Shown here one piece after another: positions 3,136-10,320 of a stretch of 64,000 nt of DNA (positions are counted from its first letter, which is position 1; every line of letters begins with the position of its first letter). The stretch lies in the NCBI RefSeq assembly GCF_044324875.1, contig NZ_CP172185.1; one strand, written 5' to 3'. The translations under genes were made by a program, and so were the position numbers. The notes below the pieces were generated by a model, which saw only the letters and a list, made by a program, of their open reading frames with translations, had not been told where the DNA came from and did no database searches. The stretch comes from Escherichia coli. Lineage in GTDB: Bacteria > Pseudomonadota > Gammaproteobacteria > Enterobacterales > Enterobacteriaceae.

Positions 3136-3906
3136 GTGCCTGGTTTGAAGATTACGCTTTTGCAGCAACCACTGGTGTGGATGGATGGTCCTGCCAACCT
3201 GCGTCATTTTGATCGTCAACTGGAAGATATTACCGGACGCGATGTGATCGTTCTACCGGAGATGTTTACCAGCGGCTTTGCCATGGAAGCGGCAGCTTCG
3301 TCGCTAGCACAAGATGACGTAGTGAACTGGATGACAGCCAAAGCGCAGCAGTGCAATGCGCTGATTGCAGGCAGTGTTGCATTACAAACGGAGTCTGGTT
3401 CGGTTAACCGCTTTTTGCTGGTTGAGCCAGGCGGCACGGTACATTTTTATGATAAGCGTCATCTGTTCCGCATGGCAGATGAGCATCTGCATTATAAAGC
3501 GGGCAATGCGCGAGTGATTGTGGAATGGCGCGGCTGGCGTATTTTGCCGCTGGTGTGCTACGACTTACGTTTTCCTGTGTGGTCGCGCAATCTCAACGAT
3601 TACGACCTCGCCCTGTACGTCGCCAACTGGCCGGCTCCGCGCTCTCTGCACTGGCAGGCATTGCTGACGGCCCGCGCGATTGAGAATCAAGCGTATGTGG
3701 CGGGATGCAATCGCGTCGGCAGCGATGGCAACGGCTGCCATTATCGCGGTGACAGCCGGGTGATTAATCCACAGGGCGAGATTATCGCCACCGCCGACGC
3801 GCATCAGGCAACGCGCATTGATGCGGAGCTGTCGATGGCGGCATTGCGGGAATATAGAGAAAAGTTTCCGGCATGGCGGGATGCGGATGAGTTTAGGTTG
3901 TGGTGA
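3136..3906 (+). CDS. yafV: Nitrilase-family omega-amidase YafV
   Basis: ORF translating [18 protein letters not shown] from GTG 3136, with AAGGAG 9 nt upstream; the ORF track begins at an upstream TTG (3127). Carbon-nitrogen hydrolase-like sequence. Confidence 0.85.
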
Positions 3907-3944
3907 GTGGGTGTTGTGTTTAGGGCCGGGGAGAGTCGGGCTAA

Positions 3945-4160
3945 GACTACGAAAGCCCGCTCCCCTGCGACCACTTTTATCATAGGAGTGTGGAAGCGCT
4001 TTTCCATCAATTGCGATGACGTCTTTATCATTTGATGAATGGCAATCTCGCATCCAGTTAATAAAGCATTCGTGAAATTATACTGAACGGATACAAGACA
4101 TAACTCTAATTATGGTGCCGTGAACAGGATTACCATTTTCAAAATTACGATATTATTTGC
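3945..4160 (-). pseudogene. Internally deleted remnant of an ISAs1-family (H-repeat) transposase gene
   Basis: About 200 nt align at roughly 80 percent identity with 6143-6345 of the intact transposase gene, preceded by a sequence resembling that gene's 3' end (gactacgaaagcccgctcccc versus attacgaaagcccgctcccc at 5379). No intact reading frame. Confidence 0.6.
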
Positions 4161-4177
4161 AGTAATTATGTTATTAA

Positions 4178-4690
4178 TCATTGTGATATTTCCATCTCTG
4201 TGATTAATACCGGATAAGCATTTAATTGCAGAGTTTGCACGAAATTATCGCAGATAACTGGCAATAACAATAACCCATCAGCCCGCTGCTGTAATACCTC
4301 CATTCGTTCTACTGATTCAACATTAACAACCAAACCAAGGGCATTTAGCGATTTAAGGATCTCCAGATGTTCACTCATCCAGCGCAGAGAAAAAGGATCA
4401 TCACCAATTATAAAAACAGGCCCCCAGCCGGTTAATAACTGGCGTTTCATTACGGAGCCAGGATGAAGTCGAGTACATATTACAGGAAATACCCCCTGTT
4501 GCGATGGTTCCGATGATGTGGATAATTCAGAAATATTTTCCATTGTTAGTGAAGAATTAACATCCATTAATAATGGTGAAACAACCTCACTTTCCTTGCT
4601 AGTAATGGCTGCACTAATCTGAAAGGAAAATAACAATATTATTACGTACAAACTTATTTTTAACATAACACATTCAATCCGTTTATTCAT
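4178..4690 (-). CDS. Hypothetical exported protein (N-terminal hydrophobic signal-like segment), AT-rich orphan
   Basis: 170-aa ORF with MLKISLYVIILLFSFQISA near the N-terminus; low-GC codon usage; no recognisable family. Start uncertain (4690 or 4666). Confidence 0.45.
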   Translation of the reverse strand: MNKRIECVMLKISLYVIILLFSFQISAAITSKESEVVSPLLMDVNSSLTMENISELSTSSEPSQQGVFPVICTRLHPGSVMKRQLLTGWGPVFIIGDDPFSLRWMSEHLEILKSLNALGLVVNVESVERMEVLQQRADGLLLLPVICDNFVQTLQLNAYPVLITEMEISQ

Positions 4691-4756
4691 GTTATAGAAT
4701 AATAATGCTATAAATCATCATTAATGTTCAATTATTTAATCACACAATTTAAAAAA

Positions 4757-5260
4757 TCATCGACCAATGTGAATTGGCAATGTACCACTCAAGTTAAAAT
4801 CACTGAATATTTTATCAATTTCTCTTGCAGTTTCTATATATTTAACCTCTTTCGTACTTGCATTATAAATAGCCCAAGCCTCGGGATGGGATGTTCCACC
4901 AAACCTTACAAAAAAACTTGATTTCATATTATTATATAAATTAACATCAGGAAAAGGATCTTCTCCAAAATTAGTAGTATTAAATAATGAAAGTTCGTAT
5001 CGCTTAGAAAATTCTGTTGGTAGGATAGCTTCACTGCCATCAATAGCATTCATCCAGAGTTTGTTACCATTATATTCCAACAATAATCTCTGTTTTGCAT
5101 GTGTCTTATCTCGTTCTTTAACGACAGCGAATACCTTTTTAACAACTTGCTGTGCGGATGGTCCTATTGTATTACCAAAAGCTGGCAACCCGATTTTGCC
5201 ATAAACACTCTCCTGAATGAAATAAATATCCGTTTTATCGGCCTCGACAATATCTACCAT
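4757..5260 (-). CDS. Hypothetical protein, AT-rich orphan
   Basis: 167-aa ORF on the same strand as, and immediately upstream of, the 170-aa ORF; no recognisable motif. Confidence 0.45.
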   Translation of the reverse strand: MVDIVEADKTDIYFIQESVYGKIGLPAFGNTIGPSAQQVVKKVFAVVKERDKTHAKQRLLLEYNGNKLWMNAIDGSEAILPTEFSKRYELSLFNTTNFGEDPFPDVNLYNNMKSSFFVRFGGTSHPEAWAIYNASTKEVKYIETAREIDKIFSDFNLSGTLPIHIGR

Positions 5261-5339: not shown

Positions 5340-6560
5340 GAAATAACAACTTTCGTTTGTTTACTGTACCAGGGCAAGATTACGAAAGCCCGCTCCCCGC
5401 AAGGACTGACGCCAGGTAGTTTCTGTCCATGGCTGCTTTTCGCATCTTACGTCTTAACCCTGCCTTGAATACCTTATCATTCGTCAAAATATTAATAGCA
5501 ATGTGCCGTATCCCTGAAAATAATTCTGCTGCGTTTCCTCTTCTTATTTTGCAGTCGTCTTCATTCATTACCACGTCCAGACGCCAGTGCAGCTTATTCT
5601 CCACGTGCCAGTGGTTTCGGATTGCTGTGGCGAACTTCTCTGCGGTTAAATCAGCAGAACTGATATAATATCTGACCGTCATTTCGGGCTCTTTCTTTTG
5701 TTCTGCTATTATTGACCGAAAGGAGACTGCCACGCATAATTTCTTCAGACCTTTCCATTCAAACGTGAAATCAATAAGTTCATCAGGGACATCGCAAACA
5801 ATATGAAGACGGATTTCTTCTCTGCCGTGACTCTTTTCACTCATTGCGTAACTGTCATGCTCTGGATTATTTAATTCTTTCAGTGGGAATTTTTCCTCAA
5901 AGGCTTTATTAAGCCGCCCCTGATTTCCTTTTACAGCGAATAAATAATCACCGCCCTGTTTTTGTATCTTCTCTGCAATATCTTTCTGGCAACCCATCGC
6001 ATCAGTTGTGATGATTTTTCCTTTAATATCCAGCATGTTAAGAAGTTCTGGGATAGCTGTAATCTCATTGGATTTCTCATCCGTCTTGATCTGTCCGATG
6101 ACCAGGCTGTGCATTGTTGAGAACGCACTAATGACATGAATCGCTCCCCTGCGGCGACTCTTGTCATAAGAGTGCCGGAGCGTTTTTCCATCAATTGCGA
6201 TGACGTCTTTATCATCTGAAGTATGGCAGTCTCGCATCCAGTTAATAAAGCACTCGTGAAATTTTGCAGGACTGATACAGGATACAACTCTGGCGATGGT
6301 ATCGTGAACAGGAATACCATTTTCAAAATCACCGTATTGTTTTAAAAAATCGAGATGTGTTTCCCCAAAATCCTCTATATCTTCCCAACCTTCTGCACCC
6401 GAAATAACGGCACAAATAGTCAACAGTAGAATATCCGACAATTTATGTTCCACTTTCCAGGCTTGTCTGTAATCGGGAATAACAGAAATATGCTCCATCA
6501 ATTTTTAAGTTCCATTTTGTTCCCCTTAATTATGTAAGGAGTATTTGATCATGTATAAGT
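5340..6560 (-). mobile_element. ISAs1-family (H-repeat) insertion element; ends approximate
   Basis: Contains the intact transposase gene; element termini were not resolved, so boundaries are approximate. Confidence 0.5.
5380..6498 (-). CDS. ISAs1-family transposase (Rhs-associated H-repeat protein)
   Basis: About 372 aa from ATG 6498 (track begins at TTG 6501); sequence [46 protein letters not shown] ... [25 protein letters not shown] is characteristic of H-repeat / ISAs1 transposases. Confidence 0.85.
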
Positions 6561-6725
6561 AATAAAAAACAGCCTCAGGTAATGAGGAATATCTCAAATT
6601 TTAAACATAAAATGCGAATTATTTAGTACAAAAAAGCAGCGTTACGTGATCTTTCCCTGTGCCGGTACCTTTGTCGTTTAATCTGGCAGCTAAAGGCATA
6701 TTGTTTTCCTGTCTGGAATATCAGC

Positions 6726-6780
6726 GACAAAAAATTTAAAAAACGGTAAGGTGCTTAACTCAGTAATAATCACCTTACCG
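6726..6780 (-). terminator. Putative terminator after the cargo operon
   Basis: Inverted repeat cggtaaggtg / caccttaccg followed, on the minus strand, by a T-rich run (ttttttaaatttttt); just downstream of the 336-aa gene stop. Confidence 0.4.
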
Positions 6781-6810
6781 GACATCCTGATTTGTAGCCC
6801 AACAGGTTAA

Positions 6811-7821
6811 TCAAGTAACAGGGATAAACTGACCATCAATCAGCGAAAATACCGGAGCGTAATACCCCATACGCTCTTCACCACTTTCATCTGTAAAACG
6901 GTAAGTCAGTGGGGAATATATTGGTTTCGATTTATTATATAGCTGCACCATACGTCCACCATTCATAACCCGGACGGCATAATCGTCCCACCTGATGGGC
7001 TGCATTCTGGCTTTCCCTCCCTCCACATTATCTTTTGAGAAGAGTGAGAGTAATATGTCATCCTCAGAGTCACCGGTTGTGGCTGACCATGCCTTCAGCG
7101 CCTCTTTGTTATAAGCTTTCAGACGTGCCCTGTCCCGGCTACTGATGATGCTTGCCATTTCGGTATAGGCGGCTTTTAACTTCCGTAACTGCTCGTCGCT
7201 TCCGGTATAGGGGGTTGCCCGCGTCCAGGCCCATTCAGGAAGCCCTGTCACGGTAACTTTTTGAGTGAACTGATACACCTTCATCCCTTTCGGGAAATAG
7301 GTTTCATCAAAATAATCTGGATCAATAAATCCTGGCTCCGCCTGCTCAGCCAAAATCTCTTTCCGGATAACGGGATGCACGCTGTCTGGCCGGGCTTCAG
7401 GTATGCCCTGCTGGTTGATGGTCACTTTTATTGAAGAAAGCAGCGTTTCCTCCTGTTTAATAAAACGAACCAAATCCAGGCTGCATCCTGCTTTTGGAAA
7501 AAAACGCCCCCGTTCTTCCATACTGGCAGGCTTGTCAGAAAACCATCCTAATGCCCCAATCTCCAGACTGATTTCATTTTCTCCATTCGCCATCAGCATC
7601 ATGGCATTGGTGCTGGATATGGCCCCGGTTGAATCACCATTTGCCCGCCAGGCACTTCTTCGGTTACTGAACCCGAGGACGCCATTAGTCTTAATGGCAC
7701 AATATGACTCTTCAATATTAAACTTACTGCGAATTTTTTGCTGGTTATCGTTAGAGCAAAATCCAGTTCCCATAACAACTCCTGACAGTAAAATAACCGA
7801 TATTAAATGTTTTGCCTTCAT
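6811..7821 (-). CDS. Signal-peptide protein, candidate immunity protein of the vgrG-linked cargo module
   Basis: 336-aa ORF starting MKAKHLISVILLSGVVMGTGFC (Sec-type signal, possible lipoprotein); last gene of the vgrG-adaptor-effector operon; AT-rich. The ORF is confident; the function is inferred from position only. Confidence 0.55.
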   Translation of the reverse strand: MKAKHLISVILLSGVVMGTGFCSNDNQQKIRSKFNIEESYCAIKTNGVLGFSNRRSAWRANGDSTGAISSTNAMMLMANGENEISLEIGALGWFSDKPASMEERGRFFPKAGCSLDLVRFIKQEETLLSSIKVTINQQGIPEARPDSVHPVIRKEILAEQAEPGFIDPDYFDETYFPKGMKVYQFTQKVTVTGLPEWAWTRATPYTGSDEQLRKLKAAYTEMASIISSRDRARLKAYNKEALKAWSATTGDSEDDILLSLFSKDNVEGGKARMQPIRWDDYAVRVMNGGRMVQLYNKSKPIYSPLTYRFTDESGEERMGYYAPVFSLIDGQFIPVT

Positions 7822-7887
7822 AATTATTCTCTCTCAAAAGGGGAAAATACTCATTATACTGTTCACTTTTAATTTCTGTAATATCAC

Positions 7888-9459
7888 TTAATAATCCATA
7901 CCTATCGTCCACGTTGTCACTGGCTTCGGCGGTGTTACTTTTTTCTCCACAGTGCGTTCTTTACCGTATAAATTAACCCGTAATGGTGAATCCTTTACCT
8001 CCATAGGATCACATAACTGCCACTCAACGGTATCTTTCTTCTCAGGTTTTTCGCTCTTTTCCTTCCCCTTTCCTTTTTCATCAACTTCACCATGAGACAC
8101 ATCAATCTTAAATTCAAACTTCCCTTTAATGCCGTCATGAAATAATGCTAGGTCCAGTCCGTCATCATGTGAATCAAATCCAAATCCAGCTTTCGCTTCT
8201 ATAGAGGCAGTCGCTTCGGCGGTCAGTTGTACAACAAAAACATTCGCCTCAAACGTCGCACTCACCACACCTTTTAAACCGAGCTTGATGTTACTTTCCT
8301 TTACATTAAACTCCCATTTTTTATCCTTTTCAGCGTATACTGCGCCAAGATCAAGATTAATCTCCGCTGAAATCTCGATATAGCATTCAACACTGGCTCC
8401 GTTTTTACGGAGATATTCACGACATCTGTTGACCAATGACTCGACTTTACAATATGCACATATAAATGAAATAATATCGAATCTGAACGACGCTTCAAAA
8501 AATGGGGCACCAAACAAACCATAAAAATGACAGGGGCCATCCTGGATATCGGTATATTGATAGGCATACGATATACCCAGTTTAACGGGTTCTATTTTTG
8601 CACTGAACAATGCATATTTGCGCGTACCATTATTATTGTCAGGATCTGGCGCAAAATATTTATTGACATTCTTGACCAGAGAGTCAATTCTTCCTATCTG
8701 TTCCAGTTGCTTTGTTTGTCGAAGTTTTTTTATCTCTTTTTCATATTCACTTGTGTGTTCAACATTAGCTATTTTTACGCCAAAATCGACAGTCAGGGAA
8801 GTCTTGTTTATCCACTCAAACTCAGCAGTGGTATTTGTCCAGCCGCTACGGAGTTTATTTTTATCCCTGGGCTTGGTGTTCTCCATTGCGTCCCTGGCTT
8901 TTATTCTTTCGTCACGCCGCTCTTTTACTGTTCTCGTCTGTTTTGATGACGAAATCTCATAGCTGAACCCTGTAGTAAACCTAATTTCCACTGTAGGATA
9001 AACATCAATTTCAACATAATTGCCACATTCGTAACAACTGTCAATTCTGACTGAATAATGGGCAGGTTCATAATGATTCTTAAGTGGAGAGGATATTGCC
9101 CCCAAATAATCCCATGGTACTCGAAATGTACCCATAGCAATTATTTCACCTTCAGACAAGTTATCATCCAAAGTGACCTTATTAGGTATTCCGAAAGGTT
9201 GCAGTATCTTATGATTATTTTCTGATTCTTCCTCTAACCATGCCTCATGTGTTCCACTTTTATCGCACTGGTAGGTAATGGTAATTATACCATCACATCC
9301 GGAACCATCATCCAGTAGCTTAAAACGCGCCACTCCTTCTTTTGACCAGAAATGTTTCTCGCCGGCCTCTGGAAAATCACTAATAACATCAAAAATACAT
9401 GGATCAGGAATGCCGCATTCCACACAGGGCTTTCCGGCTGTCGAAGATGGAGATGTCAT
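7888..9459 (-). CDS. Candidate T6SS cargo effector of unknown activity
   Basis: 523-aa ORF directly downstream of the DUF4123 adaptor; no signal peptide; about 13 cysteines including three C-x-x-C pairs (C12/C15, C142/C145, C334/C337); lysine-rich C-terminus; no G-x-S-x-G lipase motif found by eye. The ORF is confident; the function is inferred. Confidence 0.55.
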   Translation of the reverse strand: MTSPSSTAGKPCVECGIPDPCIFDVISDFPEAGEKHFWSKEGVARFKLLDDGSGCDGIITITYQCDKSGTHEAWLEEESENNHKILQPFGIPNKVTLDDNLSEGEIIAMGTFRVPWDYLGAISSPLKNHYEPAHYSVRIDSCYECGNYVEIDVYPTVEIRFTTGFSYEISSSKQTRTVKERRDERIKARDAMENTKPRDKNKLRSGWTNTTAEFEWINKTSLTVDFGVKIANVEHTSEYEKEIKKLRQTKQLEQIGRIDSLVKNVNKYFAPDPDNNNGTRKYALFSAKIEPVKLGISYAYQYTDIQDGPCHFYGLFGAPFFEASFRFDIISFICAYCKVESLVNRCREYLRKNGASVECYIEISAEINLDLGAVYAEKDKKWEFNVKESNIKLGLKGVVSATFEANVFVVQLTAEATASIEAKAGFGFDSHDDGLDLALFHDGIKGKFEFKIDVSHGEVDEKGKGKEKSEKPEKKDTVEWQLCDPMEVKDSPLRVNLYGKERTVEKKVTPPKPVTTWTIGMDY

Positions 9460-9480
9460 ATAATCTATCCGTTTGTCTTT

Positions 9481-10320
9481 TTATTGTGGGATAAATCCCA
9501 GTTCCTGTTGTGCAAGTTCATGTACCCGAATATGTCCCGGGTATGACTGATTGCTGAGTTGTTCATACCAGTCATCCGGAATATATCTGAGATCGATTAT
9601 ATTTTTTTTCAGTAATATAAGCGTCATTGTTCTGACGGAACGATCATCTGCTATATTTAATGACTGGCAAAAAGAGAAATAATCTTCTGCCAGAATTCGG
9701 GATGATTCAGCTTTTGATGAATCATCCCATCCGTTTTTATCTACATTTTCTTCGATAAATGCAGATAATATATCAAGATAATTATCCCGTGCCTTTCGTT
9801 CCAGTTGGCTATATTGTCTGTAACTCAGCGTCAGTTGTGATGGCCGTTCTGCCCTTATATTCATAGTTTCTGCGGGACGGACGGAAGAAAAATTATCCTC
9901 ACGACATTCTTCACCATAACGGGTACTTAGCTGTCTGACGGGACTGATAAAAGAAAGACGCTGGCGGGGGGTCAGAACTTCCACTAATACCCATATATTC
10001 CGGGGATCATAAAATCGCATGAGAACAGGTTTCTCCTGTTCGGGGATCCTAACCCACAGATAACGTCTGAAGTGTTGCTGTAGCTCACGCATGGATGACT
10101 CAGAAGTCAGATATATTCCCCATGGCGACGCCTTAACACTCAGCCATGCTTCAACCTCCGGAACGACTTCCACGAGATAGGGGGCTAGCGCGACCAGATC
10201 CAGTTGTATGGGTTCTGCATACAGACAACAGTGCGGGGGATTCACCTCGTTCAGAAAATCCAGCAATCCTTCCTCCACAGCGCCATCCACAATGGCGTAC
10301 TGCACGGGTGCCGTTTCCAT
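9481..10320 (-). CDS. T6SS adaptor/chaperone, DUF4123 (Tap) family
   Basis: About 279 aa with N-terminal YAIVDGA and LMRFYDPR motifs typical of DUF4123 adaptors; ATG at 10320 overlaps the vgrG TGA stop (TGATG). Confidence 0.7.
   Translation of the reverse strand: METAPVQYAIVDGAVEEGLLDFLNEVNPPHCCLYAEPIQLDLVALAPYLVEVVPEVEAWLSVKASPWGIYLTSESSMRELQQHFRRYLWVRIPEQEKPVLMRFYDPRNIWVLVEVLTPRQRLSFISPVRQLSTRYGEECREDNFSSVRPAETMNIRAERPSQLTLSYRQYSQLERKARDNYLDILSAFIEENVDKNGWDDSSKAESSRILAEDYFSFCQSLNIADDRSVRTMTLILLKKNIIDLRYIPDDWYEQLSNQSYPGHIRVHELAQQELGFIPQ

Follow-up and report, generated by a model that had tools for sequence, protein, structure and literature searches.

The 336-aa gene at 6811-7821 very probably encodes the immunity protein cognate to the 523-aa T6SS toxin next to it and would be the E. 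coli counterpart of TpiV from Vibrio cholerae, judging by its sequence and genomic context. An earlier note, made from the letters of this DNA, had put the gene forward as a putative immunity gene. That proposal now gains support from synteny, from a conserved Sec signal and from homology to the second gene of the Aux-4-type pair in Vibrio.

We analysed a window of 64,000 nucleotides from Escherichia coli (GCF_044324875.1, contig NZ_CP172185.1), which matches E. coli 042 (NC_017626) at 100% over positions 6500-10400. The locus adjoins fadE-ivy-yafV at the edge of a T6SS cluster, and the order on the minus strand is hcp, vgrG, a DUF4123 gene, the 523-aa ORF and the 336-aa ORF. The latter is as it had been described: 336 aa at 6811-7821 on the minus strand, directly after the effector gene, with a spacer of 66 nt from the effector stop codon. 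It starts with MKAKHLISVILLSGVVMGTGFC, matching the earlier quotation. Across the locus, the G+C content changes from ~55% in the flanks to 38-49% over the effector and immunity genes and to 29% slightly farther downstream. The features of the cassette are as follows:

12499..13017, minus strand: Hcp, first gene of the hcp-vgrG-adaptor-effector-immunity unit
10320..12278, minus strand: VgrG spike, 652 aa, carrier of the cargo module
9481..10323, minus strand: DUF4123 gene, adaptor/chaperone of the effector, with a 4-nt overlap between its start and the vgrG stop
7888..9459, minus strand: putative TpeV-family T6SS cargo effector, 523 aa (homology, model)
7853..7882, minus strand: candidate sigma-70-like site (ATTACA, 18 nt spacer, TATAAT; 10/12 matches), called on a consensus match only
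6811..7821, minus strand: predicted TpiV-family periplasmic immunity protein, 336-aa precursor (homologues, context, model)
7756..7821, minus strand: Sec-type signal peptide, codons 1-22 (MKAKHLISVILLSGVVMGTGF, then Cys22), from the homologue alignment and from SignalP 6 as given in PMC11114119
6744..6780, minus strand: stem-loop with a 10-bp outer stem, then a U-run at ~6738-6743 (folding: dG -21.6 kcal/mol, z -2.95)
6664..6699, minus strand: PAAR gene remnant of 12 codons (MPLAARLNDKGT) that match the beginning of the Nissle PAAR gene exactly
5380..6501, minus strand: ISAs1/ISEc1-family transposase bounding the cassette

RefSeq lists the vgrG gene (10320-12278, minus strand; compare 11878-13779 in locus L001) as a pseudogene in 042 (‘missing C-terminus’), yet the 652-aa ORF is intact. 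Since its C-terminal tail (...FVAHCPKEDK) is also kept in other genera, it is probably a genuine short VgrG.

The closest characterized system is Aux 4 of V. cholerae (BGT49), which consists of hcp, vgrG, a DUF4123 gene, tpeV, tpiV and paar (Crisan et al. 2021, PMC8386463). TpeV is a protein of 535 aa with 11 Cys and no signal peptide that has to be directed to the periplasm to permeabilise and depolarise cells, while TpiV carries a Sec signal and neutralises TpeV, a protection shown for the V. cholerae proteins only (PMC8386463). The E. coli gene resembles tpiV in following directly on a Cys-rich effector of ~525-535 aa that lacks a signal peptide, with vgrG and the DUF4123 gene preceding. 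Its product has a Sec signal, and a PAAR gene comes next, intact in Nissle and reduced to a remnant in this strain. It differs in belonging to a distinct enterobacterial subfamily of ~336 aa, with an identity to the Vibrio proteins (~21-30%) that is low and that we counted against the assignment.

Our comparison was made via a V. brasiliensis cluster as a proxy for that of BGT49 and by matching accessions and lengths to Table S1 of PMC8386463, which we likewise counted against the assignment. Three word-indexed homologue searches reached no Vibrio relative, which was found by an exhaustive search of representatives (phmmer with the 336-aa query; V. brasiliensis protein at E 7.4e-7). The V. brasiliensis contig carries hcp, vgrG, a DUF4123 gene and a 536-aa gene, followed by four repeated units of a 262/330-aa gene plus PAAR; this is the Aux 4 layout. 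Both members of the pair could be aligned with their Vibrio counterparts: the 336-aa protein matched the V. brasiliensis 330-aa protein at E 8e-15 in BLASTP, and its family profile did so at an hhalign probability of 99.5% (E 6e-23, 252 columns), while the 523-aa effector matched the 536-aa protein over residues 9-497 (BLASTP E 1e-11, 22% identity).

With the immunity model, Foldseek retrieved two Vibrio proteins at probability 1.00, D2YIH2 of V. mimicus (E 3.6e-19) and A0A655XSE5 of V. cholerae (E 1.2e-18). The accession D2YIH2 is numbered beside D2YIH3, which Table S1 of PMC8386463 lists as a TpeV orthologue of 536 aa, and other immunity hits are likewise numbered beside Table S1 entries (A0A081FT97/98, A0A1C0U6I4/I3 and C7BTS5/6). 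The effector model retrieved the Table S1 entries A0A380QA02 and C7BTS6. The V. cholerae study (PMC8386463) reports homologues from E. coli, Yokenella, Citrobacter koseri, Serratia fonticola, Photorhabdus and Pectobacterium, in many cases accompanied by several putative immunity genes, and these taxa are the ones that our homologue searches returned.

The earlier note had proposed checking whether homologues of the gene always sit next to homologues of the 523-aa gene. A scan of one genome per species gave 45 loci; these were searched by tblastn with five window proteins, and the immunity copies were grouped into arrays. A homologue of the 523-aa gene lies <400 bp upstream in 26 of the 32 arrays that have enough upstream flank (Lelliottia, Kluyvera, E. 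whittamii, Rahnella, Siccibacter, Brenneria, Pectobacterium, Dickeya, Symbiopectobacterium, Photorhabdus and Serratia). Gene order is typically vgrG, DUF4123, effector and 1-4 tandem immunity copies per contiguous run, and separate runs within one island total up to 8 copies (Photorhabdus heterorhabditis, L023). Across loci, the identities of the immunity and effector proteins to those of the window fall in step (71/63, 65/58, 55/52 and ~43/35%). The remaining six arrays have no adjacent effector and were counted against the immunity reading. Five of them (L012, L017, L030 and two in L023) lie within islands carrying a second, related effector-immunity family and one (L040) is solitary; all six look like orphan immunity copies.

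The second family, with an effector of ~533-544 aa and an immunity protein of ~310 aa, shares islands with the first (L008 7601-10094; L012 2818-12358; L017 7201-9727; L018 1397-5000; L023; L030). The immunity genes of both families are interleaved there, and truncated effector fragments occur (e.g. L018 5797-6474). Profiles of the two families align for the immunity proteins (hhalign probability 99.95%, E 2e-38) and for the effectors (99.9%, E 4e-34), the latter compared on a clean subset from which three sequences common to both profiles had been removed. Effectors of the second family also match Table S1 of PMC8386463 by accession and length (P. parmentieri AFI91657.1 and Y. pseudotuberculosis SUP83978.1).

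Within E. coli, the two genes travel together almost without exception. Among 5,426 complete genomes, 329 have the immunity gene, 328 the effector gene and 324 the whole module (3.9 kb at >=80% coverage). The module occurs as two matched allele pairs, one of them >=99% identical and present in 173 genomes, the other at ~86% (immunity) and ~79% (effector) nucleotide identity and present in ~150 genomes. Nissle 1917 and ATCC 25922-type strains carry the divergent allele in a separate island between yncG and yddH; in Nissle (L047, NZ_CP035486 1634624-1649629), this island reads PAAR-vgrG-DUF4123-effector-immunity-PAAR-vgrG-M35 peptidase.

The 336-aa ORF is not a chance reading frame, since 193 homologues were found at E<=1e-3 in a word-indexed search and 81 representatives at 50% identity were matched in the exhaustive one. 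The predicted model (pLDDT 82) has an N-terminal beta-sandwich (~residues 28-190) and a C-terminal NTF2-like domain (~205-336). Neither the protein nor any of 22 family members had a Pfam match at E<=10, and the 523-aa protein had no Pfam match either. Searches of NCBIfam and PADLOC with both proteins and their relatives, and of PDB sequences with both family profiles, returned nothing significant. The Imm-NTF2 family profile gave no sequence match to the 336-aa protein despite the NTF2-like fold of the model. Database labels on the Foldseek relatives are doubtful: ‘glycosyl hydrolase family 26’ appears in Vibrio and ‘IdsF’ in Pectobacterium, Serratia and E. coli. We rejected the former as a functional guide, and no GH26 profile match was obtained.

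The RefSeq model of the gene is 320 aa long, starts at Met17 (7773) and lacks the signal peptide, which raises the question of whether the true product acts in the cytoplasm. In favour of the shorter form, the ATG at 7773 is preceded at a distance of 5 nt by AGGAG, a better Shine-Dalgarno sequence than the weaker GAGAGAGAA at the ATG at 7821, and PGAP picks a Met17-type start in E. coli and in many relatives. Against it stand the 16 upstream codons, which are conserved in all homologues as the n- and h-regions of a signal peptide, including in the 84%-identical Nissle allele and in Photorhabdus and Pectobacterium copies of 39-45% identity. In all 22 aligned proteins (41-78% identity), a basic n-region and a hydrophobic core precede the conserved IRSxF...CAIKTNGV block. 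The same pattern recurs in the longest ATG-initiated ORFs of ~70 copies from the 45 loci, where the usual cleavage site is of the AxA type (ANA|A, ANA|D, ASA|A, AHA|E), and signal peptides are also present in the Vibrio and Enterovibrio relatives. Because every full-length homologue in Enterobacterales (39-78% identity) keeps these regions upstream of IRSxF, the 336-aa start is right and the RefSeq model is probably truncated. The invariant pair Cys41 and Cys113 would, moreover, fit an oxidising compartment. We therefore consider a cytoplasmic 320-aa product highly improbable, and the N-terminal Sec signal that the earlier note had read from one sequence proves to be conserved across the family. 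Many orthologues (317-321 aa; L001 8312-9274) are likewise started by RefSeq/PGAP at an internal conserved Met that removes the signal peptide, which is probably a systematic, family-wide start-site error.

Two further readings accept export but dispute the function. The earlier note had suggested that a protein of 336 aa, being large for an immunity protein, could instead be a second exported factor; such a factor or co-effector would work together with the 523-aa protein. The two domains of the model could be taken the same way, and binary effector modules exist in the T6SS (PMC8728615). The argument from size falls away, as 300-340 aa is normal for this family. T6SS substrates lack Sec signals, whereas the 336-aa family always has one; tandem arrays of paralogues, like orphan copies, are typical of immunity genes; and the Vibrio homologue protects target cells. 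Of only indirect relevance, T6SS secretomes in Proteus lacked all Ids proteins except IdsA, IdsB and IdsD. We thus regard a co-effector as very unlikely. According to the other reading, the protein is a mere passenger of the cassette, either a periplasmic enzyme (such as a glycoside hydrolase or one with the NTF2 fold) or accessory protein, or a recognition component like IdsF. The glycoside hydrolase label in Vibrio and the ‘IdsF’ label on some relatives speak for it, as does the NTF2 fold, which is common to many enzymes; we give it little credence, and the immunity function remains our preferred assignment.

Export of the 336-aa protein is thus well supported by comparison of homologues, and a lipid anchor, if any, would be a matter of the individual allele. 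Cys22 is confined to the 042-type allele and E. whittamii and is absent from most homologues; the Nissle allele has GTGLYSS at this position. The E. coli clade has no clear AxA site in the c-region. The lipobox of the 042 allele (T-G-F-C) is atypical, and a poor one given the Phe at -1 (both points were counted against), in contrast to the canonical LSAC of the V. brasiliensis copy and to the AxA sites of most enterobacterial copies. SignalP 6 had nonetheless assigned the E. coli protein to Sec/SPII with a score of 0.77 (PMC11114119). Lipidation was considered as a family trait and rejected, as Cys22 is specific to one allele.

In the mechanism that we propose, the 336-aa precursor would be exported by Sec and its signal peptide removed, or the 042-type allele may instead be lipidated at Cys22, in which case the Ser at +2 would predict sorting to the outer membrane. 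The mature two-domain protein would stay in the periplasm, probably with a Cys41-Cys113 disulfide, which the invariance of both residues across the family would fit. There it would bind TpeV-like toxin injected by sister cells via the VgrG/DUF4123 route and keep the inner membrane from being permeabilised and depolarised. What we infer here is that the two proteins bind directly and that the gene protects E. coli, and likewise the disulfide, the lipidation state and the precise compartment. An effector acting in the periplasm, as the earlier note had predicted from the signal peptide, would by analogy fit the behaviour of TpeV, which permeabilises only from that side (PMC8386463).

The 523-aa effector has no signal peptide, contains 13 Cys and carries a conserved N-terminal AG..C..C..PDPC motif. 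Across its family (7891-9459, minus strand, in the window), S..AG.....C..PD.C is invariant at the N-terminus (residues 5-21) and D......DL...H.G at the C-terminus (429-443). Both motifs are kept in two enterobacterial subfamilies and align in the Vibrio protein with partial conservation of residues. The effector model is weak (pLDDT 64), which was counted against the assignment, and shows very long beta-hairpins; in Foldseek, it gave a faint tail of matches to autotransporter and OmpA-type barrels, which is only a hint. The predicted structure would be compatible with a beta-type pore former and, at this pLDDT, gives no basis for any particular pore architecture.

The family may be linked to IdsF, encoded in the ids self-recognition operon, based on the database labels and on a 311-aa relative from Proteus mirabilis (243 cluster members; phmmer E 1.1e-5). 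Going further, one could imagine that the TpiV/ECUMN_0233 family is an unnamed two-domain immunity architecture (beta-sandwich plus NTF2-like cone, no Pfam entry) that caps the membrane-insertion hairpins of a beta-hairpin-rich, possibly beta-barrel pore-forming T6SS toxin and that may include Proteus IdsF. We offer this as speculation that is rather unlikely to hold. If IdsF did belong, the ids operon would carry a TpiV-like periplasmic component, giving IdsF a testable function.

Among known immunity proteins, TsiV2 (for VasX) and Tli (for Tle phospholipases) are Sec-exported, are encoded directly after their effectors and can have an internal promoter. They resemble the 336-aa protein in export and gene position and are unrelated to it in sequence and fold. 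An NTF2-like alpha+beta cone also serves as the toxin-binding module of the Imm-NTF2 and Imm-NTF2-2 families (Zhang et al. 2012, PMC3482391). These are single-domain proteins paired with nuclease or JAB-type toxins, whereas the 336-aa protein adds an N-terminal beta-sandwich and is predicted to be periplasmic.

The role of this E. coli gene is already known as a proposal. Casiano Gonzalez et al. 2024 (PMC11114119) proposed ECUMN_0231/0232/0233 of UPEC UMN026 as a chaperone/effector/immunity system, with ECUMN_0233 as the putative immunity protein; the published signal peptide is identical to the one described here, and the gene is the same. Their evidence comprised domain searches, SignalP, AlphaFold docking, PCR surveys, RT-PCR and competitions between natural isolates without mutants, in which an ECUMN-positive isolate resisted killing by UMN026. 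TpeV is not mentioned in that paper, and the link to TpeV/TpiV is not part of the published proposal. Most PCR-positive isolates in PMC11114119 are reported to carry only one of the genes, as opposed to the near-perfect co-occurrence in complete genomes found here; the divergent second allele (~79-86% nucleotide identity) likely explains this by PCR drop-outs.

The statement that the gene is the last of its operon holds for this strain but not in general, as a PAAR gene follows in Nissle. Here, its remnant lies 111 nt downstream of the immunity gene, and similarity to Nissle stops at 6664, beside the ISAs1/ISEc1 element. The terminal position of the immunity gene is therefore explained by an insertion or deletion that removed the PAAR gene, with the IS element as the probable cause of the truncation. 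The cassette may have lost its own PAAR tip; with the PAAR gene truncated, the strain may or may not still fire the toxin, a point that we counted against the assignment.

The sigma-70-like site in the effector-immunity spacer is possibly a promoter of the immunity gene’s own, as its sequence suggests. Independent expression of immunity genes is known for the tsiV genes of V. cholerae. The stem-loop resembles a terminator or attenuator; it is located in the spacer that separates the stop codon of the immunity gene from the PAAR remnant, and this spacer has 98% identity to that of Nissle. A terminator scan did not call this hairpin, whose loop is longer than the scan allows; it was seen by direct folding.

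Through the link to TpeV/TpiV, three “hypothetical proteins” become a toxin, for which a membrane-permeabilising mode is predicted, and its antidote; the current understanding of T6SS biology stays unchanged. The cassette is present in ~6% of complete E. coli genomes, including enteroaggregative 042 and the uropathogen UMN026, with the second allele in the probiotic Nissle 1917 and in ATCC 25922 (“Seattle 1946”). With this distribution, it probably has a bearing on the coexistence of E. coli strains in the gut and in the urinary tract.

Two observations concern the mobility of such units. Between the IS element and yafV (4178-5260, minus strand, and 3565-4053), we found a PFL_4695-family integrating conjugative element protein (TIGR03765, E 2e-35), a 167-aa hypothetical protein without a family match, ISAs1 fragments and a G+C content down to 29%; this region is mobile-element debris at the island edge. 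In Enterovibrio norvegicus (L048, 1039-8915), an Aux-4-like unit (hcp, vgrG, DUF4123, 556 aa, 304 aa) lies directly beside smpB, which recalls the location of Aux 4 on a mobile element with VPI-1-like att sites (PMC8386463).
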